From a virus, in the IMG/VR virus record IMGVR_UViG_3300035494_000025, positions 1-43,117 of that record: 43,117 nucleotides of DNA. One strand, written 5' to 3'. The notes under the pieces were generated by a model, which saw nothing but the letters and a program-made list of their open reading frames with translations, was not told the DNA's origin and ran no database searches. A program made the position numbers and the translations under genes. Position 1 is the first letter of the stretch. Every line of letters begins with the position of its first letter. Below, one piece after another: positions 809 through 20,918 of the stretch.

Positions 809-817
809 GGAGATATT

Positions 818-1369: not shown

Positions 1370-1370
1370 T

Positions 1371-1416
<46 letters not shown>

Positions 1417-1430
1417 TTAAAGGATAAATA

Positions 1431-1640: not shown

Positions 1641-1818
1641 ATACATTATAGCTGCTGCTATTGCCTTATTAATATATAAGAAAGGCAAGGAGTCAGAGCA
1701 GCTAAGCAAATCTAAGGATGATGAAGCATTGAGGAGGAAATATGAAAAAATTGAAGATACCAATATTGCTGATGATATTTATCTTGTCGATAACTGGGTG
1801 CAGCATAAAAACAAATAG
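1615..1818 (+). CDS. i-spanin-like protein (N-terminal TM helix, charged periplasmic part)
   Basis: 67 aa with TM segment YLALIKYIIAAAIALLIY followed by a K/E/D-rich tail. Its 3' end overlaps the lipoprotein ORF at 1742 in another frame, the overlapped Rz/Rz1-type arrangement. Confidence 0.5.
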   Translation: MEKYLALIKYIIAAAIALLIYKKGKESEQLSKSKDDEALRRKYEKIEDTNIADDIYLVDNWVQHKNK

Positions 1819-1957
1819 TATCTGCCCTAATTTTCCAGCACCAGACCAGCATATACTTAATAGTATTAAATCACTTGATGATGATACTGTTAATAGGTGG
1901 ATGGAAGATTTGTATAAACATAAACTAAAAATAGATACTTGTAGAAGTACTCATTAA
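1742..1957 (+). CDS. o-spanin-like outer-membrane lipoprotein
   Basis: Signal peptide MKKLKIPILLMIFILSITG|C with lipobox I-T-G-C. The short mature part contains Pro and Cys. It starts inside the preceding ORF. Confidence 0.65.
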   Translation: MKKLKIPILLMIFILSITGCSIKTNSICPNFPAPDQHILNSIKSLDDDTVNRWMEDLYKHKLKIDTCRSTH

Positions 1958-1966
1958 AGGATAGCT

Positions 1967-2416
1967 ATGACAACTAATTTTACGTTTAAAGAACTTACAA
2001 ATAGTAAAGAACATCCTGAACTTGTTAGTGACAATAGGGCTGAAGCACTTAGTACTCCGCTTATACTTAAAAGACTTAAGTACTTAGCATGTGCTGGTGA
2101 GGAGATTAGAGGGTTAGTCGGTAGACTTTTAACTACATCTGGTTATAGAAATACAGCTTTAAACGATGCAGTTGGCGGGTCTAAAACTAGTTCACATTTG
2201 TTAGGCAATACTGGTGACTTTATACCATTAGATATGCCTATAGAAGAAGCTTGGGAAATTATCAAAGCTAATAAAGATAGGTTTACCAGTATTAGAAAGA
2301 TAATTTTTGAGCATATAGGCAATAGGAAATGGTTCCATATTGAAGCTAAGATTAAGGCTGAGGAAGGGTTAGTACTATATACTACCACTAATGGTAAAAA
2401 CTATACTAAAGTATAG
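1967..2416 (+). CDS. endolysin, peptidase M15-type (zinc D-Ala-D-Ala / L-Ala-D-Glu peptidase fold)
   Basis: The blocks SGYRNTALNDAVGGSKTSSHLLGNTGDF and WFHIEAK match the M15 pattern SGYR..N..GG..S.H..G.A.D ... H. Confidence 0.8.
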   Translation: MTTNFTFKELTNSKEHPELVSDNRAEALSTPLILKRLKYLACAGEEIRGLVGRLLTTSGYRNTALNDAVGGSKTSSHLLGNTGDFIPLDMPIEEAWEIIKANKDRFTSIRKIIFEHIGNRKWFHIEAKIKAEEGLVLYTTTNGKNYTKV

Positions 2417-2439
2417 TAATTAAATTTAAGGAATACGAT

Positions 2440-2676
2440 ATGGCTTTAGTAGATTATAACAAAACAACTTGGGTTAATGATAATGCTCCTGCATTAAATG
2501 AGACCAACCTAAACAACATAGAGAATGGTATAGAGAGAGTTACATCTGCAGTTCAAGCACTTGAGGACAATAAGTATGTATTACCTGGTTCTACTTCTGT
2601 TGATATTGGTGGAATAAGAACAAAGCTTACTACTTCACCTAATGGTGCAACGCTAGAAATATTCACGACTAATTAA
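2440..2676 (+). CDS. small tail-fibre-like protein
   Basis: The N-terminus TTWVNDNAPALNETNLNNIENGIERV resembles the W..g..i.a..LN.iE.gi motif common at the N-termini of phage fibre or tail proteins. RBS taagga. Confidence 0.4.
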   Translation: MALVDYNKTTWVNDNAPALNETNLNNIENGIERVTSAVQALEDNKYVLPGSTSVDIGGIRTKLTTSPNGATLEIFTTN

Positions 2677-2685
2677 GGTGTTACT

Positions 2686-4419
2686 ATGGCACAGACTAAC
2701 GTAACAGAGCTATTAGATTTTACAGGTGGTATAAATAATGTAGTAGCTCCACACTTATTACCTATGAATGAGGCATTAGACCTTACAAATGTGGATATAA
2801 CTTATGGCTCATTAAAATCTATGACTGAGCTAGAAAAAGGTAAAGCTGCTCAAGGCTCACATTTTGTAGAATATAGGGACACTCTATATTTCTACAATGA
2901 TTGGAGAGCTAATGCATTATTAGACAATAAGTTATATTGGACTAATGGCATATCCCAAGGCAAGATATTACCTGATGGTACACAATTGCCTTTAGGTATT
3001 ATAACTCCTAATGGAAAGGCTATTGTATCAGCTAGCGGCTCATCTGGAAGTGGAGTACACAAAGGTGATTTTAAGTATACATATACTTTTTATTCTAGTA
3101 CTACTGGGATAGAGTCGGCTCCTGCACCCCTACCACCATACGTAACAGCAGACAATCAAGATATACTCCTTAGTGGTTTTGATACCATTCCATCTAATGC
3201 TGATATGTATAGAATTTATAGAGTTGGTGGGTACCTAGCTAGATTTACATTAGTGGCTACAATAAAGTCTACAGATTTGCCTTATTTAGATAGTCTTGAC
3301 GATACAGAGGTTGATGGTAGAATACTTCAGACTTTACGTACTGGTGTGCCAAATCCCAACATTAGGAACTTTATTGAACTTAATGGTAGACTATATGGTA
3401 GTGTTGGGTCTAAAGTATATTACTCTGGTTTAGGTGCTCCTGACTCTTGGTATACTGATGACTTCTTTACTATGCCTAATATAGTAGTTGCGCTAGGTAA
3501 AAGCTCAGCTGGTATATTAGTGTTTGGTAAGACTTATACATATTTGCTATACGGTAATTCACCTCAAACATTTAAGGTACAGATTATATCTGACTCACTT
3601 GGATGTATAAGTGCAGAGTCAATAGCCTATTATAATGACTCATGTATATTCTTGGGGGTAGATGGCATATATGCAATTAGTGGGGTTAGTATACAGAATA
3701 TTACATCTAATAAGATACGTAATATATCCGGTTTGAATATATCATCTGCTGCTGTTGCTAATAACGTTTACTACTTAGCATATAAACCTACAATATATGC
3801 TAGTAATGATATAGTACCTAGCAATACATTGTATCCCGGTGGTACAAAAGGAACAGCAAACAATACTAGCAGTCAGGGTATACTTGCCATAGACTTTAGG
3901 CATGGTAATGGGTATAGTTATAACATATACTCATATGATGCTACTTTATCAATAGGAGTATCAAGAGGACTATTACATACTGTACAATACTTGCCCAATT
4001 TACCCATAGTATGTAATGCTACTATATATTGTACTGATGTGTTTTGTCTTGGTGACTATACACTCATGCCGTTAGTACCTACAACTACTGCTGTGTTTAA
4101 GAAGTTAAGATACAATAGCCCTCAGTTAATAGATGGTTCATACTCTACTCTTAAAGAGTATGATAAGGTTAGAATTAATTTTATAGGTTCATTTAATGTT
4201 AAGGTTATATTCTCTAATAAGGATGTTGTTATTGACGTAGATATAGTTAGTAGTAAATATGTTAATACAAATGGAGAGTTATATACAGCAAAAGATGAAG
4301 TAGTTACTTTAGGTATACCTAATAACAACAATAAGTCTTATTCTATAATGTTTATTATAGAAGGCAAAGGAATTATAAAATCTATACAATATAGCTGGAA
4401 AACTAGGGAGCTACCATGA
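2686..4419 (+). CDS. tail structural protein (possibly a beta-propeller nozzle or tail-tubular-B-like protein)
   Basis: 577 aa and beta-rich, with repeated G..vY.s..g / W motifs (LYGSVGSKVYYSGLGAPDSWY, ILVFGKTYTYLLYG, IFLGVDGIYAISG). It lies between the lysis and portal genes. Function is inferred only. Confidence 0.4.
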   Translation: MAQTNVTELLDFTGGINNVVAPHLLPMNEALDLTNVDITYGSLKSMTELEKGKAAQGSHFVEYRDTLYFYNDWRANALLDNKLYWTNGISQGKILPDGTQLPLGIITPNGKAIVSASGSSGSGVHKGDFKYTYTFYSSTTGIESAPAPLPPYVTADNQDILLSGFDTIPSNADMYRIYRVGGYLARFTLVATIKSTDLPYLDSLDDTEVDGRILQTLRTGVPNPNIRNFIELNGRLYGSVGSKVYYSGLGAPDSWYTDDFFTMPNIVVALGKSSAGILVFGKTYTYLLYGNSPQTFKVQIISDSLGCISAESIAYYNDSCIFLGVDGIYAISGVSIQNITSNKIRNISGLNISSAAVANNVYYLAYKPTIYASNDIVPSNTLYPGGTKGTANNTSSQGILAIDFRHGNGYSYNIYSYDATLSIGVSRGLLHTVQYLPNLPIVCNATIYCTDVFCLGDYTLMPLVPTTTAVFKKLRYNSPQLIDGSYSTLKEYDKVRINFIGSFNVKVIFSNKDVVIDVDIVSSKYVNTNGELYTAKDEVVTLGIPNNNNKSYSIMFIIEGKGIIKSIQYSWKTRELP

Positions 4420-4622: not shown

Positions 4623-5051
4623 ATGAAGATAATTAAGGCTACTCCTGAACACATTGTAGATTTAGCTCTTATGTTACGGGATATGTATATGGAGGTATTC
4701 ACTGCTTATGCTAGTGAGGACCTTGATTTATACATACACGAAATAATTAGATGCTTTAATGACTCTAAACAATGTATATACACTACTAATACCTTAGATG
4801 GTATTGTAATAGTAGTTGATACTACTGATACGTTGACGCCTACTTTACTTAGATGTCAATGCACTAGAGTATATATAAAGCCTGAGCAAAGGCATAGTAA
4901 ACTACTAAGGCAATTTTATGATAAGTTATTTGAGGACTATCCTGAAGGCTCTATACTAGGGTTTACTGAAATAAATAGTTCACATATAAAAGTACTTGAT
5001 AAGCGTCATGAGCTTATAGCAAAAGTATATAAACTTGATAGGAGCAAATAA
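4623..5051 (+). CDS. GNAT-like acetyltransferase (putative)
   Basis: 142 aa. The segment RVYIKPEQRHSKLLRQFYDKL fits the GNAT motif A region (v.V.Pe.Rg.g....l). The overall size fits a single GNAT domain. Confidence 0.4.
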   Translation: MKIIKATPEHIVDLALMLRDMYMEVFTAYASEDLDLYIHEIIRCFNDSKQCIYTTNTLDGIVIVVDTTDTLTPTLLRCQCTRVYIKPEQRHSKLLRQFYDKLFEDYPEGSILGFTEINSSHIKVLDKRHELIAKVYKLDRSK

Positions 5052-5746
5052 TGGGAGCAAGTGGACTTTTAGGCTCAGCAGGTAGTCTATTAGGTTTTGA
5101 GTCTGCAGAGCAAAAAGCTGCAGGTAAGGCTATGGATTCGTCATTATCTATATCTAGTCAAACATTAGCTGAAAATAGGGCTACTAGTGCTGAAATGATT
5201 AACTTTAATCAAAGCATACTAGATAAATGGGAAGCTACATTTGGTAGTATAGAGAGCAATCTAAACAGTTATTATAGTAGCTTAGACCCAGTCAAGTTTG
5301 CTACTCAAAACAAAACTGCCTTATATGACAGTATGAGTAAGCAAATGAAACAACTTAATGAAACTCTTAGCTCTTCCGGTCTTATGAGTAGCGGTATGAG
5401 AGCTCAAGCGGAGAAAGAAGCAGCATTTAGGATGGCAGAGAGTAATGCTGCTATTGATATGGCAGCTCCTGAACAGGTAGCGCAAATGCAACAAGGTTGG
5501 TTAAGTGGTAATAAAGCTACAGAGCAAAATGCAATATCTGGAATTAATCAAGCTTATGCTGCTAAGATGGGAGTTACTACAAACGGCGGAAATGCTATTG
5601 CTGGTCAGTATCAAGCACGAGCGCAACAATACGCAGACTCTTCAGCAGGTTATATGAATTTCTTAGGTTCTGCTCTTGGTATAGGTGCTGCCATGTATAC
5701 TGGTGGTGCATCCGCAGCTGGGGCAGGCTCAGCAGCCACAGTGTAA
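5051..5746 (+). CDS. G/A/S/Q-rich virion-associated protein (putative)
   Basis: 231 aa with low-complexity Gly/Ala/Ser ends (MGASGLLGSAGSLLGF..., ...GGASAAGAGSAATV). It lies immediately upstream of the portal gene. RBS aggag. Confidence 0.45.
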   Translation: MGASGLLGSAGSLLGFESAEQKAAGKAMDSSLSISSQTLAENRATSAEMINFNQSILDKWEATFGSIESNLNSYYSSLDPVKFATQNKTALYDSMSKQMKQLNETLSSSGLMSSGMRAQAEKEAAFRMAESNAAIDMAAPEQVAQMQQGWLSGNKATEQNAISGINQAYAAKMGVTTNGGNAIAGQYQARAQQYADSSAGYMNFLGSALGIGAAMYTGGASAAGAGSAATV

Positions 5747-5765
5747 ATTAATATTTGGAGTAATA

Positions 5766-7703
5766 ATGGCTACACCTACTGCTAAAGGCCAGTTAAAGCT
5801 TGGTAACAAATCTAAGTTACTTCAAGCTTGTCAAGATGCCTATAAAATTAGTGAGGCGCAATATAGGAATTCTGTTAATGAAGGTAGGGAAGTAATAGAC
5901 CTTTACAATAATAGACAATACACAGCTGCACAATTAGCTACAATAGCTGAGAATGGGCAACCAGCTGAAACATTTAATATAATTAAAATGTTTAGTAATG
6001 CAATTATAGGCTACTTGGAGTCAGTAGTAAATAAAGTCAGCGTAGAGCCTAGATATTCAGGTTCTGCAGCTACAGCATTACTTCTTAATGATTTAGTTGA
6101 TTATACTCTAGACCAAAATGACTTTGAGACTATGAACAAGAAGATTAAGCTAGATGGCCTATTAACTGGTTTAATGGCTTGTGAGGAAGAGGTAGTACCT
6201 ACTGGACTTAAGGATAAGTTTGGTAGGCCTTTATTTGAGATTAGACTTAATCATGTACCAAGTTGGCAACTAAGATTAGACCCTCACTCCTTCCTTGATG
6301 ATTATAGTGATGCTAGACACTTGCACCACTTTAAATGGATGCCTGAAGAGTCACTCATTAAGTTATTTGGTGCATCTAAAGTTGCAGAGCTTACAGAATA
6401 TCATAACCATTTAGATGGGGACCCAGATGCTGATTATGAGAGACAGTTTAATGGTAGGGATATCGGTAAATATAAGCAGTATAATAACTACTTAGTTGTT
6501 AGAACTATTATAGAACATAACGGTAAGATATACAACGTTATATGGTGTGATGACGTAATACTTGAGCAAAAGGTTATAACATTTAAAGAGGTTAGATTTC
6601 CTATTCGTGTAGTTAAGATGAGTGCATCAGATATTGCAGAATACTATGGACCATTTAGAGATATAACTGAAACGCAAAAAGCTATCAACCAAGCATTGCT
6701 ACAAATACAGTTACTTGTTAATACTTCTAAGGCATTTGTAGAAGATAATGCTGTAGAAAATCTTGATGAGTTTAAAGCATTATTCAGTAGGATTAATGCT
6801 ATTATACCTGTTACTGATTTAGCTGGTATTAGAGTAGAAGATATGAGTAGAGATATACAACAACAGTATATCATCATAGACCAAGCTTTAACACGTATAA
6901 AAGTTGTATTAGGTATAAATGATAGTTTCTTAGGTTCTACGTTTGCTAGTGATAGTGGTAGAAAAGTTGCAATGAATACAGCCTCTAGCGGTAGTCAACT
7001 AACTATGGTATTAGATAGAGTTCAGTATCTATACAAGATGATAGGTACTGATATTGTTAATCTTATTAAGCAATACTATAGAGGTGAGCAAATATTTAGA
7101 ATTGCTGACCCTTTAAATGGTGCCCACTATGTTGAGATTAATAAGCCTATTCAAATGCCTACAGGTGAAATAGACCCTAATACTGGTGAGCCTATAACAA
7201 GCCTAGTATACGATGAGGAAATTAATCCTGAGACTGGTGAACTTATGGAAGATGATGAAGGCAACATAATTGTTACTCCTTTGTCGCACCCTGACTCAGC
7301 AATAGAGTTTAGTATGGTTGATATTAAGGTAAAAGCTAGTATTGCCAATAACTCACAAGAGAGAAACCAGTTACTACTTGAGACAGTAATGAATGGCCCT
7401 GCAGGTCAAGTATTACTACAAACAAACCCAGCAGGTTATCTAAGAACTTTAGCTATGGGCATTAGTGAATTTGGTACTAAGCACTCATTAGAAGTTGCAA
7501 AGGTACTAATGGATACTGCTTTAGGAATAGAGCAAGGAAAAGTAGACCCTAGGTTAGCTATGGTAGGCGGTGACTTGCAAGCTATAATGGGTGGAGCTAT
7601 GGGCGGTAATAATGGAGCTGGTGGTGCTGTTGGAGGCACAATGCAAGCTAAAGAAAGTCCTACATTAGGTATACCAAAGCCTGGTAGAGAAGGAGGTAGA
7701 TAA
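5766..7703 (+). CDS. portal protein
   Basis: 645 aa counted from the ATG at 5766 (RBS tggag), not the track start at 5685, which overlaps the upstream gene. It has an N-terminal block QYRNSVNEGREVIDLYNNRQYT...GQPAETFNIIKMFSNAIIGYL typical of portals, a Gly-rich C-terminus, and a typical size. Confidence 0.7.
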   Translation: MATPTAKGQLKLGNKSKLLQACQDAYKISEAQYRNSVNEGREVIDLYNNRQYTAAQLATIAENGQPAETFNIIKMFSNAIIGYLESVVNKVSVEPRYSGSAATALLLNDLVDYTLDQNDFETMNKKIKLDGLLTGLMACEEEVVPTGLKDKFGRPLFEIRLNHVPSWQLRLDPHSFLDDYSDARHLHHFKWMPEESLIKLFGASKVAELTEYHNHLDGDPDADYERQFNGRDIGKYKQYNNYLVVRTIIEHNGKIYNVIWCDDVILEQKVITFKEVRFPIRVVKMSASDIAEYYGPFRDITETQKAINQALLQIQLLVNTSKAFVEDNAVENLDEFKALFSRINAIIPVTDLAGIRVEDMSRDIQQQYIIIDQALTRIKVVLGINDSFLGSTFASDSGRKVAMNTASSGSQLTMVLDRVQYLYKMIGTDIVNLIKQYYRGEQIFRIADPLNGAHYVEINKPIQMPTGEIDPNTGEPITSLVYDEEINPETGELMEDDEGNIIVTPLSHPDSAIEFSMVDIKVKASIANNSQERNQLLLETVMNGPAGQVLLQTNPAGYLRTLAMGISEFGTKHSLEVAKVLMDTALGIEQGKVDPRLAMVGGDLQAIMGGAMGGNNGAGGAVGGTMQAKESPTLGIPKPGREGGR

Positions 7704-9625
7704 TGTCTGGTAGTATGTTTGGTGGTCAAGCCATGAGTAATGCTCTTCAAAGTGGTTTAAATGCTTATGCAACTGTGGAGAATATAAAAACTAGTATTCA
7801 AGATAGACAACTTAGAGCTAAAGCTGCAGCAGATGAAGCTAAACTTAGGGCTGAGCAGATAAAAGGAGCGCAAAGCCAAAACGTAATAGCTTCAGCTCAG
7901 GCTGCAGGCTATGAACAGCTTAAAGCCGAATTAGATAGCTTAAAAAGTCAGCTACAAGCAGAGCAAGGTGATAAAGCCAAAACATTAGTAGCTAATGTAT
8001 TAACAGCTAAAATTCCTACAGAACAAAATGATGCACTTAGAATATTTAAAAGCCGTGCGCCTAAATCTGTGCTAGATGCTTTAGATATTAAAGATGTTGG
8101 TAATTTATCTTTACTTAGTGAACATGATATTAAAGACACAAAAGCGTATTTAGCTAAACTACCAGGAGTAGATGCTACAACATTAACTGATGATAATGTT
8201 AAGAAAGTAATTGATGAAGGTTTCTTAATTAAAAATGGCGGCCAAATAGTAGATATTAGTGCTGTTTCTGCTCAAATGGGTGTATATGATACTTTAACTA
8301 AAGAACAAAAAGCTTATCTGGAAGACTCTAGTGCTAGGATACGGAATATTATAGCTCCTAATAAAGATGGAGCTACTCCAGTAGCACAAAGTAATGGAGC
8401 TACTCCAGTAGTACAAAGTCCTGAAGCTACTCCAGCAGTACAAAGTAATGGAGCTACTCCAGTAGCGCCTAATAAAGACTTTGCACCTAGTACTGCCTCT
8501 ACAGTAGATACAGAGGCTTTAAAAGCTGAGATTAACAAACGTGCTAGACAATTAGCTGGAATACCTGCTGATGCTGACAATAGGGTAGCATTAGAGAAAG
8601 AACTTGACTATATAACAAAGCAATTTCCAGGTCAAGATGCTGTTGAAATTTATAGACAGCTAAAACGTTCAAGTAGTGGTGGTTCCCTTGCATGGGATGA
8701 AAGAGTCTTGGAGATGGAAAAAACCATTATGAGAAATGAGGGCATTTCAGAGGGTAGTACTGAATGGAATTCCAGGTTAGCCAAAACAATGGAGCAAATT
8801 AATACTAAGCAGCTGCAAGGTGTTGGTAGTAATGTAACTAGGGATGATATAGAAATAGCAACTAATGCACAAGCATTCGGTAGTATGATTATTAGTAGTA
8901 ATAGCGGTAATGGTTACGTTATTCCTAAGAATGCACAAGAAGTAGAAAATAGATTTATGACTACTGAGCAATTTACAGCTGGTGGCATAAATAAAGACTT
9001 TAAGGATTTTAAAGCTCAATATGCTTCAACTGCTAAGATAGTTGATTTAAGTGCAAGAGTAGATGATTATATAAAAAGAGGAGGTAACTTAGGTATTGAA
9101 AAGTCTATAATGACTACATTTGCCACTAAACTACCTCAGTTTGTTAAAGATACTATACCTGAAGATATAGCAGCTATGGATGCAAAAGATATTGCTGAGA
9201 GTATGGGTATTAAAGGTGAGTCTACATTAATCATCGGTGAAATGGTTAAAGCTATGTATGGTGGTCAGGCGTCTAATAGAGATAGGGAAACATTTGAAGC
9301 TGTAATTAGGAATGGCGCATGGGATAACAATTTTGCTATTCAAGAGAGCTTAAGAAATATGGCTAATGTTACCATTAAATCTACTAAAACAAGTGGTGAG
9401 AAATTAATACAGGCTGGTATGGTATACACTCCTGCCAAGTATATTAATGAGCTAACTACACTTAAGCCTAAGAGTAATAGTAATAAGCCTAGTGTAAATA
9501 ATAAGCCTACTGTTAATATTAAACCACTAACTGATGAAGAGAAGGCAGCTGGCTGGTCTATTAAGCAACAAAATGGTAAATACTACAAAGTCAATATGCA
9601 GACTAAGCAATATGAGGAGCTATAA
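7703..9625 (+). CDS. large virion protein (putative internal or ejection protein)
   Basis: 640 aa with a coiled-coil N-terminus. ATGs overlap or directly abut the neighbouring stops at both ends of the gene (7700-7705 and 9623-9628). No enzymatic motif recognised. Confidence 0.5.
   Translation: MSGSMFGGQAMSNALQSGLNAYATVENIKTSIQDRQLRAKAAADEAKLRAEQIKGAQSQNVIASAQAAGYEQLKAELDSLKSQLQAEQGDKAKTLVANVLTAKIPTEQNDALRIFKSRAPKSVLDALDIKDVGNLSLLSEHDIKDTKAYLAKLPGVDATTLTDDNVKKVIDEGFLIKNGGQIVDISAVSAQMGVYDTLTKEQKAYLEDSSARIRNIIAPNKDGATPVAQSNGATPVVQSPEATPAVQSNGATPVAPNKDFAPSTASTVDTEALKAEINKRARQLAGIPADADNRVALEKELDYITKQFPGQDAVEIYRQLKRSSSGGSLAWDERVLEMEKTIMRNEGISEGSTEWNSRLAKTMEQINTKQLQGVGSNVTRDDIEIATNAQAFGSMIISSNSGNGYVIPKNAQEVENRFMTTEQFTAGGINKDFKDFKAQYASTAKIVDLSARVDDYIKRGGNLGIEKSIMTTFATKLPQFVKDTIPEDIAAMDAKDIAESMGIKGESTLIIGEMVKAMYGGQASNRDRETFEAVIRNGAWDNNFAIQESLRNMANVTIKSTKTSGEKLIQAGMVYTPAKYINELTTLKPKSNSNKPSVNNKPTVNIKPLTDEEKAAGWSIKQQNGKYYKVNMQTKQYEEL
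8353..8479 (+). repeat. In-frame 27-nt tandem repeat (3.7 units, GATPVAQSN) flanked by APNKD
   Basis: Units lie at 8369, 8396, 8423 and 8450 (ggagctactccagtagcacaaagtaat and variants), bracketed by cctaataaaga on both sides. Confidence 0.9.
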
Positions 9626-12532
9626 ATGGGCTTTGATTTCAACGCAGAATATACAGATGTGGATGCTACTGATGTAGTAGATGCACCTGTAACTAGTGCT
9701 AATACTACTACATCTGGATTTGATTTTAATGCAGAGTACACAGACGTTAGTGATGACTCAACCACTCCTATACCTGCTGAAACAGCTACAGTATCTAGCG
9801 CAAAAGATGCTTCGGGTGGGTTTTTAGGTCTTAGTATATTTAGTGGTCCTACGTACAATAAGACTCCTGAGTATAAAAAGGCATTTGATGCTAAGATGCA
9901 AGAACTTAAACTAGCTAAAGAGGAGAAGCGTAAGCAGGAACTCAAGCTAGATGAGGAAAAAGCTACAGCAATTAAAGGCAAGCAGTATAAAGAGACTGAA
10001 CTATCTGAGCAGTTCTTACCGGAAATATTTACTGGCAAGAAGTATACAACTGATAGCATAATGGGATTTGCTGCAAAAAGACGTAGAGAACTGCAAGAGT
10101 CAGGATTTACTGGTAATGTAGACCACCAAATAATTAGTGATCTGGCAGCCAAAGGTGCTACTACACTAGATATTCAAGAGTATTCACAAAACTCTAGAGG
10201 TGTATTGACCGGTGCACAAATGGCAAAAGCTGTATTAGACCCGGTAAATCTCGGTATGGAATTTATGGATACGTTGCAGGAGAGAGTAGTAAGTCCTTTT
10301 GTAAGTAGAGCTATGGAATATAAGCATGCTGTATTTTCTATTGCTGCTGACGTATCTCGTATATCCGAAGGCTTAGGCTTGATAGAAGAGGGTACAGTAG
10401 CTAAAGCCCAAAAAGCTATAACAGAGTCTAGAGCAGTGGAGGATGCTATAGTAGCTGACTACAAAGCAACATATGGTAACTCAGGTGTTAGTACTTTAAT
10501 GACTGCAGCAGAGTTAATAAACTTAGCCCGTTATGCTCCAGTAGGCGCAAGTGGTTCACTTAGTTGGACAAAGATGGCTTTTGCCGATGGAGCCTATGCT
10601 GCGTTTAAAGCAAAAGGTGATGGCTATGATGCTATACAAGCTGGTGCACACGGAGTAGGCGCCTTTGTATTAACAAAAGGGTTAGGTAAAGTACTAGATA
10701 CAGCTCCAGCTATTTGGAATACACTAAAGGGCTCTAACCCTAACTTAAAGAGTATAGAGCAGCTTAGTGACCTACCGTCTAAACATATGAAAGCTGTAAG
10801 AGAACTGCAACGTATTAATGGGTGGGATGATAAGCAAACTATTGAAATTATAAATGGGTTTAGAGAGGGTACAGCTACTGGTAAAATTAATGCATTAGAA
10901 ACTGTACGTCTATTAGCTCAGAACTCATATGATGCATCTGGTAGAGAACTATTTAAAGACTCTATTTTATACAATAGTAAGGCAGCTACTACATTCTTGG
11001 ATGAGACTACAGCTAGGTCTAACAATATACTAAAGTTAGTAGATAGCCAGACAACTCTAGGTAAGATACTTAACCAGAATAAACTAGCTAGACACGGTAA
11101 AGTATCTATTGATTGGCGTGGAGTACAAGTAGCAGCTGAGAAAGCTGGTATTAATATGAACTCTACTATTATGAAACGTATTGCTAAGAACGCTGACGCT
11201 TTTGAAGATTGGGACTTAGCTTATCATAAGATGATAGTAAACAAACTTGGTGGTGTACCTAATACTATAGGAGAGACTATAGCTAAAACAGCGTACCAGC
11301 TTACTGAAGCAGCTGTAGGTAAAGCTTTTGCTAATATGATGCATACAGCAATATTAGTTCCTATTACACCAGCTAAAGCTATGGTAAGAATAGCAAAGGA
11401 GTTGGTACCATATAGTACAATTAGAACAAAAATTACTAAAATGGTATCAGAGTCTTTAGTATCAGGTAAGCCTATAAACCCTATACAAATTAGAGCTGAG
11501 TTTAAACGTGCTAATCCTTATCTTACTGACGCACAGTTAGATAAGGAGCTTGCTAAAGTTGTAGATTTGTCCCAAAAGTCAAAGAGGCAAATCATAAAAG
11601 AAGAGCAAGCAAGAATAGCTAAAGATGAAGCAGCCGCTAAAGCCAGAGCCACTGCTGAAAACCTTAAATGGCAGAAGATGTCTGATGAGGAGGCTAACAT
11701 AGCCTATAGGGATGAAGAAGCTAGAATGAAAGCTTTATCTATGGAAAGAGCTCAAAAAGAAGCAGATGATACTGCTATGGCTGAAGCTACAATGACTAAA
11801 GTTAAAGATGAATTTGCAACAGCTAAAACAATAGCGAGCTTTGAAAGGGAGAAAGCTAAGTCAGATTTAGTGGCAGCCAAGGTAGCATATAAAGCACGCC
11901 AAGTAGATTTGAAAGCGGCAAAGAAAGCTGAGAAAGCTAATCCTAATAAGCAAACTGTTGAAGCTGTACAGCAGGCTACTGAAGCTGTTAAGAAAGCTCA
12001 TACTGATGTAGCTAATGCTATAGGCAAAACCGAAGTTAAAGAAGCGTTAAAAACGCCTACTACTATTAAGTATAGTAATAAGGCTAGAACTGCTGTAAAG
12101 AGTAATATAAATGTAGAAATGAAGGGTGCAACTGAAGAAGGTAAGGCAGCCTCTAGAGTTGCCAGAGAAGTTACTTCTATTCATGCTTTCGGTAAGGAGT
12201 TTACTGATGCATTTAATATTGCACATAAGGATGGCACAACATTTAGTAGCTATTTAATTAAAAACGCATCTAAGGTAGATGCAAAACAAGTTAAAGAATA
12301 CTATATGTTAAATCCTAGTAGATTAGCTGATGGTAGGTTCGGTATACCTAAATCTATACAAGCTAAGTTTGATATACCTCAAAGATATATCAAAGTGCCT
12401 AAATCTATATCAGACAGTGCAATTAAAGAAGCTAGTAAACCGTTAGCTAAACAGAGTGTAGAGATGCAAGCTGAAAATAGATTAGGCATGGCAAAGACTG
12501 GTAAGTCAACTAACCCTAAAGGATGTAAATAA
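9626..12532 (+). CDS. very large virion protein (putative internal or ejection protein)
   Basis: 968 aa. The N-terminus carries a duplicated GFDFNAEYTDV motif (nt 9629-9661 and 9716-9748). There is a long K/A/E coiled-coil region at about aa 640-800. Its position matches podovirus ejection-protein genes. Confidence 0.5.
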   Translation: MGFDFNAEYTDVDATDVVDAPVTSANTTTSGFDFNAEYTDVSDDSTTPIPAETATVSSAKDASGGFLGLSIFSGPTYNKTPEYKKAFDAKMQELKLAKEEKRKQELKLDEEKATAIKGKQYKETELSEQFLPEIFTGKKYTTDSIMGFAAKRRRELQESGFTGNVDHQIISDLAAKGATTLDIQEYSQNSRGVLTGAQMAKAVLDPVNLGMEFMDTLQERVVSPFVSRAMEYKHAVFSIAADVSRISEGLGLIEEGTVAKAQKAITESRAVEDAIVADYKATYGNSGVSTLMTAAELINLARYAPVGASGSLSWTKMAFADGAYAAFKAKGDGYDAIQAGAHGVGAFVLTKGLGKVLDTAPAIWNTLKGSNPNLKSIEQLSDLPSKHMKAVRELQRINGWDDKQTIEIINGFREGTATGKINALETVRLLAQNSYDASGRELFKDSILYNSKAATTFLDETTARSNNILKLVDSQTTLGKILNQNKLARHGKVSIDWRGVQVAAEKAGINMNSTIMKRIAKNADAFEDWDLAYHKMIVNKLGGVPNTIGETIAKTAYQLTEAAVGKAFANMMHTAILVPITPAKAMVRIAKELVPYSTIRTKITKMVSESLVSGKPINPIQIRAEFKRANPYLTDAQLDKELAKVVDLSQKSKRQIIKEEQARIAKDEAAAKARATAENLKWQKMSDEEANIAYRDEEARMKALSMERAQKEADDTAMAEATMTKVKDEFATAKTIASFEREKAKSDLVAAKVAYKARQVDLKAAKKAEKANPNKQTVEAVQQATEAVKKAHTDVANAIGKTEVKEALKTPTTIKYSNKARTAVKSNINVEMKGATEEGKAASRVAREVTSIHAFGKEFTDAFNIAHKDGTTFSSYLIKNASKVDAKQVKEYYMLNPSRLADGRFGIPKSIQAKFDIPQRYIKVPKSISDSAIKEASKPLAKQSVEMQAENRLGMAKTGKSTNPKGCK

Positions 12533-13530
12533 TGGAATGTTCATTAGCAGACAGAGTAAAAGACCTAGTAGATGATATAGCAGTGCCTGAAGAGGCACTG
12601 CTTAGACGTATAGAGTCTACTGATGCTAGAAAATTTAGAGCAGCTAATGGTGAGCTTAAAGATAAACGTAAAGTACTTCAGTCTGAGATTGATAAGCTTA
12701 CTAAACAGTATATTGCACTAACTGATGGCATTAAGCAATATCCTATAAATCCTAACACTGGGGAGTACATTGTGCCTAAGTCACATATAGATTTAGATAA
12801 TAAGCTATATGAACTTAACAAGCAACTAGAGGATTTAGACGATACAATAGAGTCAGCAATGTACAACATGAGTACCTTTAAACCTTCTGTAGTATTTAAA
12901 GGTACTGGGTCTAATAAAGTAGATAGAGGGATAGACTATAGTGAGTGGGATGATGTAATAGCTGACTATACTAATTTATCTTATGTTGATGATATAGCTA
13001 ATATTAGAGCTGGTAGGGACGACCCAGGAGGGATTAGTAAATTCTTAGACAATGCTGAGCAGAACTTCAAAGGTACAGTATATAGAGGCTCTAGATTAAA
13101 GTCAACGCAACTTGATGAGTTAAAAGCAGTTATGACTAAAGGCTCTATTATTACAAATAAAGCTCCTATGAGTACATCAGTAGACCCGAAAGTTGCTGTT
13201 GAATTTTCACGTGGCAGTCCTCTACAAGGTAAGAAACATGCTATATTTACTTTTAAAACAACTGGGCACGACATAAAGAAATACTCTACAGTTGTAGAAG
13301 AAGATGAAGTCCTATTATCCCATAACAAATATTTCCAAGTTATAGAAATGTTTGAAACTGACATGCAGGTACATGTATTAATGGAAGAGATACACCCAGA
13401 GGTAGTAAAGGCTATGAAAGAAAACCCTGAATTTGCTAGTACTTTAAAGACTGCTAGCAACAAGATACTAAGTGCTTTAGGCTTAGGCCTAGGCGCTAAA
13501 GCTATATCAAACAATGAAGGAGAGTTATAA
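12532..13530 (+). CDS. ADP-ribosyltransferase, R-S-E class (C3/Vip2-like), with an N-terminal coiled-coil extension
   Basis: The triad is in the correct order and spacing: VYRG (R185), MSTS (S214-T215-S216) and EEDEVLLSHNKYF (E257-x-E259). The last closely resembles the C3 exoenzyme ARTT/ExE block E-Y-E-V-L-L-N-H. Confidence 0.75.
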   Translation: MECSLADRVKDLVDDIAVPEEALLRRIESTDARKFRAANGELKDKRKVLQSEIDKLTKQYIALTDGIKQYPINPNTGEYIVPKSHIDLDNKLYELNKQLEDLDDTIESAMYNMSTFKPSVVFKGTGSNKVDRGIDYSEWDDVIADYTNLSYVDDIANIRAGRDDPGGISKFLDNAEQNFKGTVYRGSRLKSTQLDELKAVMTKGSIITNKAPMSTSVDPKVAVEFSRGSPLQGKKHAIFTFKTTGHDIKKYSTVVEEDEVLLSHNKYFQVIEMFETDMQVHVLMEEIHPEVVKAMKENPEFASTLKTASNKILSALGLGLGAKAISNNEGEL

Positions 13531-14027
13531 TGGCTGATTTAACATGTGGTGAAAATGGTTCTAATGGTCAAGCAGTAATAGGTCGTATTAATAGTAATAC
13601 AGCTAGAATAGATGCCTTAGAGTCTGCGAATGTATTATTAGATGATAGACTAGATTACATTGAGGGTAACTATAGATTTATTTATGATGTACATGGTGCA
13701 TCTGCTGATATTGGGGAAGTGTATGAAACTTTAGCTAATATTAGTACATCTATTACAGCTGGTGTATATATGGTAACAGTATATATACTGTACACATTAG
13801 ATGATGATAACCATAGTGCTATATTCAGGCTGACTAGAGCTAGTGGTAGTCAAGTTATGACGCAGGAGCCTAAGGATAGGACTGATGTTACACCTATATC
13901 ATACACATATTTACATAACCAAACTGTAGATGGTGATTTTGATTTAACCTTAGAAGCTAAGAAAGAAGCAGGAGCTGGTACATTTAATATTATTGAATGT
14001 GGCTTAATTGTAGATAAGAGAGCTTAA
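13530..14027 (+). CDS. hypothetical structural protein (165 aa)
   Basis: ATG overlaps the upstream stop. RBS gaaggag. It is the last gene of the plus arm. Confidence 0.5.
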   Translation: MADLTCGENGSNGQAVIGRINSNTARIDALESANVLLDDRLDYIEGNYRFIYDVHGASADIGEVYETLANISTSITAGVYMVTVYILYTLDDDNHSAIFRLTRASGSQVMTQEPKDRTDVTPISYTYLHNQTVDGDFDLTLEAKKEAGAGTFNIIECGLIVDKRA

Positions 14028-14037: not shown

Positions 14038-14272
14038 CTGCCTCAGAGTAAGTTTCTCTTACTCTATCTTGTATGTACTCTAAGCCTTGCTTCATAGAGT
14101 CTACTAACATAGCAACTTTAGCTTTTGCTTCGCCTTCATCTGTACCGAATACAAACTCATTTACTGTACCGCCAGGTACTTTAAACTCTACTGTAAACAC
14201 CCCATCTTCAGGCCTTTTTACCACTTTAACTGTCATTAATGACTCTTCAAATTGTACATAGTTATCTTGCAT
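14024..14272 (-). CDS. hypothetical protein (82 aa)
   Basis: ORF track entry. Acidic protein and last gene of the minus arm. Confidence 0.5.
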   Translation of the reverse strand: MQDNYVQFEESLMTVKVVKRPEDGVFTVEFKVPGGTVNEFVFGTDEGEAKAKVAMLVDSMKQGLEYIQDRVRETYSEAEESN

Positions 14273-17445: not shown

Positions 17446-18114
17446 CTATTCTATAAAAGACTCAAATAAGGGAGCTACTAGGTCTAAGTGTCTAGGGTAT
17501 ATATGTAGACTTGCACACTGCCATATTATATCACCAGGCTGTTTACCTAATTCACTACATACTTTATCTAGCATAAACTTATGCCAAGCCCAATCATTCT
17601 TGTAACCAAATATTGCATCGTTACTACGCATTTGTACTATACAGTTGATTTTGCTACTATCATATAAATCTTGATTGTAGTTTACTGCATTAGTACAAAT
17701 GAAGTCTTTCATGCCATCTATATATGCATCCTTATGTATAGATGGTCTAGTGTATACCATAGTAGCTTGTTTAGAGTCAGGTCTTTTTCTTAGAGTTCTT
17801 ATAACATTTCTAAACTGCTCACCATTCTCCTTACTAAACACTAAGTAACCATAGTTACTATTTATATTACCATAAGTAGTAGCTACATCCATCCAAACCT
17901 TAGGAGGATTTCGCATATCATACACATTAAGTGATTGTGATAAATACCACTCTATTTCCATTTCTATGTACTCCTTGTTAGGAGTACCAAAAATTCTATC
18001 CTTATCAGCTATAAAGGATACACCTTGAATTTCTAGCATGCCTCTGCTGTTTACTTTTCCAGCAGAGTGCAATTTTCTAAACCATTGTCTTATATCATTA
18101 ACTCTCAAATACAT
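17446..18114 (-). CDS. deoxycytidylate (dCMP) hydroxymethylase, T4 gp42-like (thymidylate-synthase fold)
   Basis: These blocks match my recollection of T4 gp42: LEIQGVSFIADKDRIFG, EIEWYLSQSL, PKVWMDVATTYGNINSNYG, MVYTRPS, DFICTN (nucleophile Cys) and MRSNDAIFGYKNDWAW (Asp retained in KND). The start is moved to the ATG at 18114 (RBS gaggag, 7-nt spacer). Confidence 0.85.
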   Translation of the reverse strand: MYLRVNDIRQWFRKLHSAGKVNSRGMLEIQGVSFIADKDRIFGTPNKEYIEMEIEWYLSQSLNVYDMRNPPKVWMDVATTYGNINSNYGYLVFSKENGEQFRNVIRTLRKRPDSKQATMVYTRPSIHKDAYIDGMKDFICTNAVNYNQDLYDSSKINCIVQMRSNDAIFGYKNDWAWHKFMLDKVCSELGKQPGDIIWQCASLHIYPRHLDLVAPLFESFIE

Positions 18115-19267
18115 CTGGGTTCTCCTCAAACATTTCGTGTATTAACTTAGAATATCCAGCCAAATCTAACCATGAGTCTGCATGGGATGGGTCTGAAGCA
18201 GCTCGCATAAGTTTTAGTATTAAGTCACTAAATACTACTCTTACTGACTCAGGCAAATCTTTGTTTCGTGTAGCAATATGCTTTTCATTTAGAGCGTTCA
18301 TTATAGAACTCCTACATTCAACTCCACTTATATATGTACCGTATACAGTAGCTCTCTGACTTAACACATCATCAATAGAACTTTCTATGTTATCTTGAAC
18401 AGCTTTGGCTGCATATGTTCTGTATACATCAGTGCTTTCTATAAAACTAGATAACATATTAGTTACATTAGTTCTTGCCTCATTTAATAGCCATGCATAA
18501 TCCTCTTTTTCTAGCTTACAAGCTATGCAATCATATAGCCATCCAAGTTTTTCATTAAATAATGAAGTACGATTACCTATTAACTCTGTGGATATAATAG
18601 GCTTAATACCACACATAAATGCTTCATATATCCTGTAAGGAAAATTAGTACCATCGTGAAATTTATCACCAAATACAGGAGTTGAGTAATGCCCTATAAG
18701 CATACTCTTAAGATGGTCTAGGTCTTTAGTGAATGGCCCCATAATCCAATTCTTACTTAGTTCAGCAGGGTATCTTCTACCTATAACTGTAGTACCAGGC
18801 TGTAGAAACTTTTTATATTGCTCATGTCTCTCAGGCTTATATTGCCCCCAATATACTGAACCTGCCTTATCTGGAATTGTCAATTCCCATAAGTCATCGA
18901 AAGAGCTATCAAATAAAGCCAATTCACTAACTTGGAAATATTCCATCTTTGTATCAGATATTGGGTGCTTAGTAAATTGACTAATTATTGTACATGAATA
19001 ATAATCTTCAGGTACCCAACATGTGTGGTCATCTATAAGGTATATAGATGGTATGTTTTTCATGTACAGTAAAACATTTTTTGTATGTACTGATACTTCA
19101 TCAGATAATACCCCATTTGTAACTATAATTAAGTCTATCGTATTTTCTAGAATACTAGCATCTTCTATACGAACTACATCATATAGCTGCTCTAAAGCAG
19201 TAACTATATAATCAGCAAACTTTATATCTATCCTATGCTCTGTAAGACTTGTAACACCTATTGTCAT
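18098..19267 (-). CDS. fusion protein: T4 beta-glucosyltransferase-like domain plus a C-terminal MazG-like NTP pyrophosphohydrolase-like domain
   Basis: The N-terminal ~290 aa carry DLIIVTNG, IYLIDD, SVYWGQYKPERHE and FGDKFHDGTNFPYRIYEAFMCG. These recall the T4 BGT blocks (IYGGS.R.G.RE; GDK.Y.D.F.T.R.WE.M). The C-terminal ~90 aa carry R-x3-YG ... ILKLMRAASDPSHADSWLDLAGY, like small phage MazG-type domains. Confidence 0.55.
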   Translation of the reverse strand: MTIGVTSLTEHRIDIKFADYIVTALEQLYDVVRIEDASILENTIDLIIVTNGVLSDEVSVHTKNVLLYMKNIPSIYLIDDHTCWVPEDYYSCTIISQFTKHPISDTKMEYFQVSELALFDSSFDDLWELTIPDKAGSVYWGQYKPERHEQYKKFLQPGTTVIGRRYPAELSKNWIMGPFTKDLDHLKSMLIGHYSTPVFGDKFHDGTNFPYRIYEAFMCGIKPIISTELIGNRTSLFNEKLGWLYDCIACKLEKEDYAWLLNEARTNVTNMLSSFIESTDVYRTYAAKAVQDNIESSIDDVLSQRATVYGTYISGVECRSSIMNALNEKHIATRNKDLPESVRVVFSDLILKLMRAASDPSHADSWLDLAGYSKLIHEMFEENPDVFES

Positions 19268-20199
19268 TATTTATCCTTTAACTTTCTTGGGTCCCATAAG
19301 GTTAACACATTTGTTTCTGGGTTATATTGGTCTAATCTAACCATACGCATATTAAGTAATGCGTCAAGCATACTCTTACCAGCTTTCTCATAAGCTTCCA
19401 CTACTGCATCCCACATGTCTAACTCACTTTTACATCCTACTAATATTTTATTAGCTTTAGCAGGTCCTATGTTAGATAAGCCTATAATACCATCACCAGC
19501 ATCACCGGTTAGACATTGCTTATACCAGAATTTTTCAGGCTCTTCTGCTGTAACAAACTTCATATCTATAGGTTGTATCTCATTACCGGATTTAGGGTGA
19601 GTGTAACCAGCCCTTGTATAATAGTTGAATGCTTCATGCACAGTAGCTCCTAATACATCTTTATCAACTGCACAAACTATATATTTATCAGGGTACTTAT
19701 TACCTAACCACCAAACTGCATCATCTGCCTCACATTCATACCACATCTTTGTTTTTAGTGGGTATCTTCTACATAGTTCTTGCTTTATTTGATAAAGGCC
19801 AAATGGTGCTCTTGTGTTTGCTCCCTGAGAGTCTACCAATCTGTTGGCTTTGTACTCTTTGGCTATCCTAGTATATCTAAAGCTATCCCTACCGGCTGTA
19901 AAGTGCAAATAAAAGTCCTTACATCCAGTGTTTTCAAGAATAACGTTTAGTTTATTTATACAACTAGTAACTGCTTCATCTATGTTTATACCATATAGTA
20001 CACCAGCTTCTTCATCATAACCGGGGTCATTCTCTATTAGAAGCCATTCTTCATCAGTACATAGTGATTTATCTACTATCTCTGAATACTCACATGATAC
20101 AGCTGCAGCAAATGCTACTGTATCAGCATCTACAAGTGCTATTTTATTGTTTTTATTTGGTAATATTCTACCAGTGCTTCCAAGGTTTACATCTGTCAT
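19267..20199 (-). CDS. 5'-3' flap endonuclease/exonuclease (FEN/PIN-like)
   Basis: KIALVDADTVAFAAA, ECEADDAVWW and TGDAGDGIIGL are acidic-cluster motifs of T5 D15 / T7 gp6-like FEN enzymes. The start is taken at the ATG at 20199, which overlaps the upstream TGA (ATGA). Confidence 0.8.
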   Translation of the reverse strand: MTDVNLGSTGRILPNKNNKIALVDADTVAFAAAVSCEYSEIVDKSLCTDEEWLLIENDPGYDEEAGVLYGINIDEAVTSCINKLNVILENTGCKDFYLHFTAGRDSFRYTRIAKEYKANRLVDSQGANTRAPFGLYQIKQELCRRYPLKTKMWYECEADDAVWWLGNKYPDKYIVCAVDKDVLGATVHEAFNYYTRAGYTHPKSGNEIQPIDMKFVTAEEPEKFWYKQCLTGDAGDGIIGLSNIGPAKANKILVGCKSELDMWDAVVEAYEKAGKSMLDALLNMRMVRLDQYNPETNVLTLWDPRKLKDK

Positions 20200-20918
20200 T
20201 TTGTTTTCTCCATAAATTTCCAACTTCTACTAAATACTTGTTCTGTGCCTAGATTTGTTGCTTTTAGCACACCATAATGTCTATTTTGGAATGTACCACA
20301 ATACCTACATAACTTATTAAGCGTAGCACTCCTATAAGCATATGAATTTGATAATGTATCAGATGCTAAATAGCTCATACCATATAAATCACCACCAGGT
20401 AAATGCATCATCCTGTCTATATTCATAGCAACCGAGCATGGATAGTAGCCGCGTTCATTGAAGCCATTACCGCATATACCTGATTGTCTACACCCCATAG
20501 AAAAATCCATATCTGTATATACTGGATCATCTATAGGTGCATTCATAGTTAATGCAAATACAGGCTCAGTATCTTTTGTCTTAGATGAGTCCTCTATAAC
20601 TATATCAACTGGTGGAGTATAATGCACCAATCCATTAGTTGTAAGTATAACATTAAAATGCTGAGCTAAGTTTATAATTATATAATCTATATCAGGATGT
20701 AATGTAGGCTCACCACCAAGTATAGCAACCACTAAGTCTTTACCGTAATGCTTGTTAGCTACAATGAACTCATCTATATAATACTTATCCAGTGTTTTAA
20801 AAGTAGACTTGAACTGTGAAAATCTATTGCAGTTATTACAACTAAGATTACACACAGTATTTATGTCTATCTCAACTATTAGTTTGCCTTTTTCCATAGC
20901 TTTTTTTCTAGTAAGCAT
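20196..20918 (-). CDS. radical SAM enzyme with a Cys-rich (SPASM/twitch-like) C-terminal part; substrate unknown
   Basis: CNLSCNNC is the CxxxCxxC cluster motif and ILGGEPTLHPD is the SAM-binding GGEP motif. Later cysteines occur in CRQSGICGNGFNERGYYPC and CRYCG. Confidence 0.8.
   Translation of the reverse strand: MLTRKKAMEKGKLIVEIDINTVCNLSCNNCNRFSQFKSTFKTLDKYYIDEFIVANKHYGKDLVVAILGGEPTLHPDIDYIIINLAQHFNVILTTNGLVHYTPPVDIVIEDSSKTKDTEPVFALTMNAPIDDPVYTDMDFSMGCRQSGICGNGFNERGYYPCSVAMNIDRMMHLPGGDLYGMSYLASDTLSNSYAYRSATLNKLCRYCGTFQNRHYGVLKATNLGTEQVFSRSWKFMEKTK

Follow-up and report, generated by a model that had tools for sequence, protein, structure and literature searches.

The virus genome IMGVR_UViG_3300035494_000025 of the IMG/VR database, analysed here over its whole length of 43,117 nucleotides (the window), encodes a predicted ADP-ribosyltransferase (ART) of 332 residues on the plus strand at 12532..13530. 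The gene starts with ATG and directly follows that of p968 (9626..12532, plus strand), the second large post-portal protein and a candidate ejection protein of the internal virion protein D (IVP-D) or P22 gp16-like class. The ART is probably packed into the particle with p968 as its proposed carrier, ejected together with the ejection proteins and active early in the host. A narrower proposal, in which Cys967 of p968 and Cys3 of the ART form a redox-releasable end-to-end disulfide and thus a 'split fusion', falls a little short of probable. ARTs within phage structural modules are a known theme (PMC9503650, PMC5576092, PMC4819975). A series in which the enzyme is fused to, split from or absent beside one ejection protein, with a cysteine pair accompanying the split state, is to our knowledge undescribed, and the literature on ejection proteins with ARTs or disulfides offered nothing comparable. 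Judged by blastn and tblastn with the gene and the protein, which give no match, this ART lineage has no cultured representative among 50,697 phage records.

Identification of the gene product as an ADP-ribosyltransferase, made in a preliminary description of this DNA, is backed by sequence, profile and predicted fold. The three marks of R-S-E enzymes lie where that description had placed them: the aromatic-R-G motif (Y184-R185-G186), S-T-S (S214-T215-S216) and ExE (E257-D258-E259, followed by VLLSHNKYF). The catalytic codons occupy 13084-13086 (R185), 13171-13179 (S214-T-S216) and 13300-13308 (E257-D-E259) on the plus strand. Pfam profiles PF01129 (ART) and PF03496 (ADPrib_exo_Tox) match the protein at 31.4 and 26.7 bits, against cut-offs of 22.3 and 23.4, respectively, and a phmmer search of the PDB retrieves the Vis toxin (E 1.2e-7) with YRG, STS and ExE aligned. 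Across 24 family sequences that share only 22-42% identity, one 94% homologue excepted, Y146, G181, R185, G186, S214, E257 and E259 are invariant, S216 is kept in at least 90% of sequences, and an upstream Y-x-x-Y/N..R helix motif is invariant or nearly so. Invariance of the catalytic residues at this divergence points to purifying selection on the active site. It also speaks against a catalytically dead domain used as a structural or plug element of the ejection apparatus, a reading that the lack of a detected immunity gene would favour and that is scarcely credible.

AlphaFold gave an unusable model from the single sequence (predicted local distance difference test, pLDDT, 42), and a model based on the family alignment was used instead (pLDDT 81.7; predicted template modelling score, pTM, 0.73). 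Residues ~120-290 (12889..13401) form the ART catalytic domain, as delimited by the Pfam matches (residues 176-287), the fold search and the invariant columns; the preliminary description had looked for such a core at residues 140-280. Its ~130-residue coiled coil preceding the domain is borne out as a helical region. In the model, this region is a helical hairpin (residues ~20-114, 12589..12873; helices 21-39, 41-64 and 83-114 with pLDDT 75-97) and the ART fold begins at about residue 120. The C-terminal tail is modelled with low confidence. N-terminal regions vary across the family and the hairpin is kept only in the closest homologs; it is proposed to be a docking or adaptor module.

The family is small. 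Among 1.84 billion representative proteins, searched exhaustively with HMMER, only 47 are relatives at E <= 1e-3 and 15 at E <= 1e-10, and a word-indexed protein search returned the 94% relative only. A pattern scan of IMG/VR with the single protein gave no match; the trimmed alignment gave two loci, one of them useful (L043). A scan of metagenomes recovered L028 again and an unrelated secreted-toxin locus.

Delivery is supported by the arrangement of this enzyme in related phages. Wherever ART homologs could be placed on contigs (the 94% relative L001, and L029, L030, L033, L035, L036, L038/L039 and L042), the gene always occupies the 3′ end of the post-portal block, close ahead of the ligase and helicase genes on the other strand. 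In L029, for example, the order is portal, a 586-residue protein, a 760-residue protein and the ART. A p968 homolog followed by the ART is the order kept in L028, L029, L030, L033, L035, L036 and L038, with 21-38% identity to p968 where similarity is detectable. Homology to p968 can be detected for the protein just upstream of the ART in L028-L030, L033, L035 and L038; in L036, this protein is truncated and has no detectable similarity to p968. The portal relatives nearest to the window in IMG/VR, L002 and L003 (65-67% portal identity), encode two large proteins behind the portal and no ART, which makes the enzyme an accessory cargo.

In five further cases, a large helical protein carries the same ART cassette, together with the tail of the cassette, as its C-terminal domain. 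These fusions are P0008 (1107 residues, directly after the portal in L031), a 1106-residue post-portal protein of L043, and P0017, P0019 and P0030. P0030 belongs to the p968 family (hhalign probability 95.5%, E 1.4e-8; BLASTP E 2.9e-12 to the L002 homolog), and it is through P0030 and L002 that p968 is linked to the fused forms; direct BLAST of p968 or p640, the first large post-portal protein of the window, against P0008 and its upstream open reading frame (ORF) found no similarity. Fusion of the same cassette to a post-portal protein in five related phages strengthens the case for packaging. It is estimated that ~44% of phage ARTs lie in head-packaging contexts, taken as a sign that such enzymes are packed into the head and injected (Iyer et al. 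2022, PMC9503650). These arrangements are comparative evidence for delivery of the ART as a passenger of the ejection apparatus. With one enzyme cassette occurring fused, split or absent on one carrier, the cargo-loading rules of the ejection machinery become directly testable.

The preliminary description had put the gene at the end of a block of internal virion proteins behind the portal. Its position confirms this, and relatives support the block as an ejection set. The portal of the window is ~44% identical to those of Edwardsiella phage KF-1, Vibrio phage VPMS1, Pseudoalteromonas phage PH1 and Dickeya phage Amaethon, in all of which the portal is directly followed by a protein of ~970-1010 residues. 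KF-1 has been placed in the F116 tail-structure group, and its gp37 has been listed as a P22 gp16-like ejection protein (Hardies et al. 2016, PMC4819975). The gp37 gene, encoding 969 residues, is the one directly after the portal. The p968 and gp37 families match with an hhalign probability of 83% (E 8.9e-6) over ~200 columns; the link from gp37 to gp16 is taken from the literature only. Both p640 and p968, which are helical and poor in cysteine, are likely ejection (internal virion) proteins.

Profile searches with p968 returned little else: nothing significant in the PDB, L002 again and nothing else in a pattern scan with the p968 alignment, and the query alone in a word-indexed search, where coiled-coil words had swamped the candidates. 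The large post-portal proteins of relatives gave nothing informative against PHROG or Pfam save a weak transglycosylase match in L002. That match belongs to the positional equivalent of p640, the first post-portal protein, and fits an ejection-protein block. An acidic motif, FDFNAEYTDV, occurs twice at the N-terminus of p968 (residues 3-12 and 32-41; 9632-9661 and 9719-9748). Analogous doubled motifs are found at the N-termini of the fused P0008 and P0019 and of a 933-residue protein of L038, and may be a shared docking signal of post-portal proteins.

Podoviral internal virion proteins are known to 'host' passenger domains bound for the cytoplasm (Hardies et al. 2016, PMC4819975). Examples are the virion RNA polymerase (vRNAP) of N4 within gp50 and the methylase-like domain of H66 gp60, enzyme domains that ride on a protein of the IVP-D class (PMC4819975). 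The fused P0008, P0017, P0019, P0030 and the 1106-residue protein of L043 have exactly this architecture, with the ART as passenger. In the window, by contrast, the passenger is a separate polypeptide. An ART passenger is not among the examples of Hardies et al. 2016, where the term 'ADP-ribosyl' is absent (PMC4819975).

Two cysteines mark the junction between the proposed carrier and its cargo. The sole cysteine of p968, Cys967, is its penultimate residue (…NPKGCK*; codon TGT at 12524..12526, plus strand), and the sole cysteine of the ART is Cys3 (MECS…; TGT at 12538..12540, plus strand). In the 2171 residues of the four ejection-block proteins, these are the only cysteines, encoded 14 nt apart, in a phage proteome with 0.72% cysteine. 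The same pattern holds in all eight lineages with split, start/stop-coupled genes: the upstream protein has its sole cysteine no more than five residues from its C-terminus and the ART has its sole cysteine at position 3-5. In L028, L029, L030 and L033, which were examined first, the upstream cysteine lies in the last five residues and that of the ART at position 3. L029 keeps the pair though its C-terminal surroundings have fully diverged (…DDILEGCN*). Three of the eight lineages were looked at as a prediction test once the pattern was known. P0012, P0021 and P0011 have unrelated N-termini with a sole N-terminal cysteine, and the upstream protein ends in …DCK*, …ECK* or …GCK* with no other cysteine in each of the three.

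Where the two parts are joined or one is missing, the cysteines are missing too. All five fused ART proteins are free of cysteine, as are the ART-less homologs or analogs (789 residues in L002, 1046 residues in L003, and KF-1 gp37). L042, in which the ART gene is not start/stop-coupled, has a cysteine-less ART, and its proteins of 584, 638 and 164 residues around the portal likewise have none. The cysteines thus persist while adjacent residues change and are absent exactly where a peptide bond joins both parts, which points to selection for a thiol-mediated link that connects the carrier, at its C-terminus, with the N-terminus of its cargo. By eye, a basic tail of the p968 protein faces an acidic head of the ART in ~5 of the 8 lineages, a weak trend that is not used as evidence.

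A recoding event could in principle place cysteine codons at this junction. The ribosome would hop or shift frame there, with the cysteine codons as take-off and landing sites, and produce a true fusion of p968 and the ART. Matched take-off and landing codons are the rule in the bypassing of T4 gene 60, and two junctions fit it: in L030 (620-640) and L033 (1744-1765), the upstream gene ends in TGC or TGT followed by TAA, and 8 nt further on comes a TGT in frame with the ART. The remaining six lineages do not fit, however: the cysteine codon precedes the stop by 1-5 codons, the peptidyl-tRNA at the stop would carry Lys or Asn, and no consistent landing codon is present. The type of overlap, and with it the frame shift needed, differs between loci (TAATG or ATGA), and each ART gene is provided with a separate Shine-Dalgarno sequence and an ATG of its own. 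Selection acting on the proteins would also account for the otherwise cysteine-free state of both proteins. Programmed frameshifting or bypassing is therefore highly unlikely as the cause of the cysteine codons, as six lineages do not fit it.

A link between the two proteins would fit the following course of events. The ART would be made late, together with the portal, p640 and p968, and would enter the head as a passenger of p968, with the N-terminal hairpin of the ART perhaps serving for docking. Once the particle is in oxidising surroundings, the ART would become joined head-to-tail to p968 by a disulfide or another thiol link, and would in this state imitate the fused versions while the ejection proteins are threaded out through the tail channel. 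Reduction in the cytoplasm would then open the link and free the enzyme, which, with NAD+ as donor, would modify host proteins at arginine ahead of phage gene expression, in host takeover or anti-defence. The split state may have arisen by gene fission of a fused ancestor, or the reverse.

A comparable use of disulfides is known from AB toxins. In diphtheria toxin, cholera toxin (A1-A2) and botulinum toxin (light and heavy chains), the catalytic chain is held to the translocation chain by a disulfide and is freed by reduction in the cytosol. The likeness is an analogy only: here, the link would run end to end between two separately translated phage proteins, and it is suggested by sequence covariation. 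If the tether exists, it would give phages a new means of loading and releasing cargo, a counterpart of the disulfide that joins the chains of AB toxins, and would offer a simple principle for designing phages that inject chosen proteins.

Several points weigh against delivery as set out above. The bacterial cytoplasm is reducing and a disulfide could not itself drive packaging, so non-covalent docking would be needed first; yet the ART of the P0011 lineage has almost no N-terminal region before its catalytic domain. The eight split lineages share ancestry and are not independent trials. The ejection assignment of p968, which has no PHROG or Pfam match, is moderately supported by synteny, composition, the 83% profile match and the literature assignment of a distant relative. 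The scanned ORFs revealed no immunity gene, ADP-ribosylhydrolase (ARH) or macro domain, which is unusual for a toxic ART in the cell that produces it unless the enzyme acts on a narrow range of targets or is kept in an inactive state.

Alternatively, the enzyme may be made late and not be packaged. It could act in the producing cell, for example by modifying host or phage proteins late in infection, by blocking superinfection or by poisoning competitors after lysis. T4 ModA and ModB are unpackaged phage ARTs (PMC8120803), the window ART lacks both a capsid-targeting sequence and a MuF domain, and the facts that speak directly are only the late-operon position of the gene and its coupling. The coupling to the genes of the 968- and 640-residue proteins, given in the preliminary description, is confirmed by the junction sequences. 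The portal stop overlaps the ATG of p640 at 7703 (ATAATG), the p640 and p968 genes abut at 9625/9626 (TAAATG), and the p968 stop overlaps the ART start (TAATG at 12530-12534), which an AAGGA Shine-Dalgarno sequence precedes by 8 nt. The ART stop in turn overlaps the following ATG at 13530. Promoter-like sites between 5000 and 15000 are not enriched (17 found, 33 expected), with no sign of a separate ART promoter, and a terminator-like hairpin at 14045..14065 (plus strand) closes the plus-strand late operon after the next gene, p165. These two observations most simply make the ART part of the late structural transcript.

Repeated C-terminal fusion to a post-portal structural protein is nonetheless hard to fit with a soluble late enzyme. 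The gene is always at the 3′ end of the ejection block and not among lysis or metabolism genes, and the paired terminal cysteines point to a physical link to p968. An unpackaged enzyme is thus unlikely, and delivery with p968 is retained as the better account of the family.

Within the ART superfamily, the window protein is closest to bacterial arginine-modifying enzymes. Foldseek matches of its model in the PDB are led by Vis (E 7e-11), followed by ExoS/ExoT, XopAI, Tre1, C3, HopU1 and further R-S-E toxins, all with probability 1.0. Comparison of the family profile with solved relatives gives E values of 1.3e-35 for Vis, 4e-24 for Tre1, 6e-14 for ExoT, 1.5e-13 for HopU1, 1.5e-11 for SpvB, ~1e-4 for iota, CDT and C2, 9e-4 for C3stau and 1.8e-3 for Vip2. 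The label 'C3/Vip2-type' of the preliminary description therefore holds at the superfamily level and fails at a closer one, where Vis and Tre1 are far nearer by family profile. The structural comparison with C3, Vip2 and Alt that it had recommended returned C3 and Alt-like proteins among the fold matches. By these comparisons, the nearest relatives of the window ART are the Vis/Tre1-like arginine ARTs of the R-S-E clade.

The ExE motif is a signature of arginine-modifying ARTs (PMC8120803). It predicts arginine, and not the asparagine modified by C3, as the residue targeted, and the protein is probably an active, arginine-specific mono-ADP-ribosyltransferase. Vis from Vibrio splendidus (PDB 4xzj/4xzk/4y1w) and Tre1, a type VI secretion system (T6SS) effector of Serratia proteamaculans (PDB 6drh/6dre), are the nearest solved relatives by both profile and fold and have the same R / S-T-S / ExE active site. 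Vis has been deposited as an NAD+--arginine ART and Tre1 modifies Arg174 of FtsZ (PMC8120803). Both are bacterial proteins delivered by secretion systems, whereas the window ART is encoded within a virion operon, and it differs from both in its N-terminal helical hairpin and conserved hydrophobic C-terminal tail. Tre1 is encoded next to its immunity protein Tri1, while no immunity gene lies near the window ART. Targets of relatives include FtsZ, EF-Tu and RNase E for Tre1, and the RNA polymerase alpha subunit and MazF for Alt (PMC8120803). As the nearest relatives, Tre1 and Vis, modify arginine on key bacterial proteins (FtsZ, EF-Tu), the target of the phage enzyme could reveal a new step in host takeover or anti-defence.

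Two closer assignments were rejected. A C3-like exoenzyme, by type a small secreted protein of one domain, does not agree with the ExE motif in place of QxE, the absence of a signal peptide, the 115-residue helical N-terminal module and the E value of 9e-4 to C3stau. The enzymatic components Vip2, iota and C2-I have the ExE motif in common with the window ART. In these binary toxins, an N-terminal adaptor with the ART fold stands in tandem with the catalytic domain, and a PA-like B component goes with them; here, the N-terminal part is a helical hairpin and not a second ART fold. Pfam and PHROG scans found no B component in the genome.

The toxin relatives raise the possibility of a eukaryote-directed exotoxin of the lysogenic-conversion type, like C3 or cholera toxin, released on lysis. 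Vis, ExoS/T, HopU1, SpvB and C3, all among the nearest solved relatives, are active on eukaryotes, and C3 and CTX are themselves phage-encoded (PMC9503650). Against this, the second-nearest relative, Tre1, is an antibacterial enzyme (PMC8120803), and the window ART has no signal peptide and an acidic N-terminus. Its gene is embedded among structural genes and is fused to them in relatives. No integrase or lysogeny module was seen among the ORFs scanned with PHROG and Pfam, and the phage appears to be lytic. Such an exotoxin is very improbable, and a role inside the bacterial host remains the preferred reading.

Among phage enzymes, the best-known parallel is T4 Alt, a myovirus head protein whose N-terminal sequence directs its targeting and which the prohead protease processes. 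Alt is delivered with the DNA and acts ahead of phage transcription (PMC9503650, PMC8120803). Delivery of ARTs by virions is regarded as a common first strike in phage infection, and experimental knowledge of it comes almost entirely from Alt. The carrier in the window appears instead to be a podoviral ejection protein. The earlier statement that the C3-like ARTT block of the enzyme differs from the Alt/ModA/ModB family appears right at the subfamily level, with no tblastn match among the 50,697 phage records, and wrong at the superfamily level, as Alt, ModA and ModB are also of the R-S-E clade (PMC8120803). Alt-like phage proteins occur among the fold matches at E 5e-10 to 1e-7; phrog_832 is matched weakly (E 9e-4) and phrog_802 is not matched.

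MuF polymorphic toxins with an ART, such as the arginine ART Bxa of a Bacteroides prophage (Jamet et al. 2017, PMC5576092; PMC11699363), follow the same logic of an ART cassette on a head-internal carrier. They share with the window family a variable N-terminal delivery part and a conserved C-terminal enzyme. In contrast to these toxins, neither the window ART, which has no Pfam match to MuF, nor its operon contains a MuF domain, no cognate immunity gene adjoins the ART, and the carrier would be the post-portal ejection protein. Matches of the ART to PHROG 'head' families cover only the C-terminal ART part of those families (for example, positions 392-512 of 513 in phrog_595), and more distant ART homologs are fusions with MuF (P0018 and P0035: MuF or portal-MuF).

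Beyond the catalytic domain, the ART ends in a hydrophobic, glycine-rich tail (13444..13506, plus strand), delimited by the alignment, the C-termini of homologs and low pLDDT. It conforms to the pattern [ND]-K-x-I-L-x-x-L-G-x-G…, here NKILSALGLGLGAKAIS at residues 309-325, and it follows the ART fold in all close homologs, standalone and fused alike (C-termini of P0001-P0019 and P0030). Its hydropathy maximum is 0.87 over 19 residues, and its 13-17 hydrophobic residues are short for a membrane helix. Contact with a membrane or binding of a host factor may be its role, although both are speculation. TreX, an Rhs ART toxin of Xenorhabdus bovienii, binds thioredoxin (TrxA) through a C-terminal extension (PMC11606950). 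TreX with TrxA, and ExoS/ExoT with 14-3-3, are delivered R-S-E ARTs that need a host factor through such an extension, and the phage family has one as well. TreX is of the Scabin-like branch, unlike the window ART, and the likeness of the tails is one of position after the ART fold. A similar Gly/Ala-rich hydrophobic tail (…FLGSALGIGAAMYTGGASAAG…) is found at the C-terminus of the IVP-B-like protein encoded at 5051-5746.

The window is a complete phage genome of ~43.0 kb, circularly closed or terminally redundant, as its first and last 82 bases (1-82 and 43036-43117) are an identical direct repeat. The phage is assigned to the podoviruses of the KF-1/F116 group. PHROG and Pfam scans delineate a plus-strand structural module that wraps round the window ends. 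It comprises a scaffold-like protein, the major head protein, tail proteins, a fibre, an M15 peptidase, a 'tubular tail B / internal virion protein' homolog, an IVP-B-like 'DNA ejection' protein, a P22-type portal, p640, p968, the ART and p165. The minus-strand block holds replication genes (ligase, helicases, DNA polymerase, exonuclease, ThyX, terminase and others).

The first recognisable member of the ejection set is the IVP-B or P22 gp7-like 'DNA ejection' protein (5051..5746, plus strand; 231 residues, no cysteine), which matches phrog_21132 (E 4.2e-18) and has homologs in 17 related loci. It is followed by the portal (5685..7703, plus strand; PF16510 P22_portal E 8.8e-67, phrog_156 E 5e-72) and by p640 (7703..9625, plus strand), a helical, cysteine-free candidate ejection protein in the IVP-C position. 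p640 has weak similarity to the 586-residue protein of L029 and to the KF-1-type pre-portal protein. Its residues 224-259 (8372-8480) consist of four tandem 9-residue repeats, ATPV(A/V)QSNG, which appeared in the terminator scan as a repeated hairpin, TGGAGTAGCTCCA. An ORF of 142 residues at 4623-5051, between the tubular-tail-B-like and IVP-B-like genes, has no Pfam or PHROG match; in T7-like layouts, this position belongs to the IVP-A assembly protein of the acetyltransferase family (PMC4819975).

The last gene of the structural operon, p165 (13530..14027, plus strand), encodes a conserved small protein. Its family closes the operon in this phage group, whether an ART is present or not: members occur in the ART-less L002 (16825-17370) and L003 (14168-14704) as well as in L030 (1622-2155) and L038 (5749-6231). 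A role as immunity protein of the ART is thereby ruled out. The family has an invariant N-terminal motif, M-(A)-x-L-T-C-G-E-G-G-S-x-G, and no Pfam or PHROG match. The stop of the plus-strand gene at 14027 and the end of the first minus-strand gene at 14024 overlap tail-to-tail, and the hairpin at 14045-14065 lies inside the minus-strand gene.

Outside the structural module, the window has genes for ThyX, for a second protein like thymidylate synthase and for a QueE-like radical-SAM protein (17446-18129, 20196-20918 and 24453-25082), and the relative L031 has a GTP cyclohydrolase I / PTPS / radical-SAM set at 8019-11116. These sets suggest DNA base modification (7-deazaguanine or a modified pyrimidine) in the phage group. 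A more distant, P0027-like relation of the phage ART is seen in L046 (CEVA01511980.1), a bacterial secreted-toxin array in which three tandem paralogous genes at 734-3126 encode signal-peptide proteins of ~250 residues each with the ART motif. These proteins have a conserved cysteine 2-3 residues from the C-terminus (…LVCG, …LYCL, …EVCAF).

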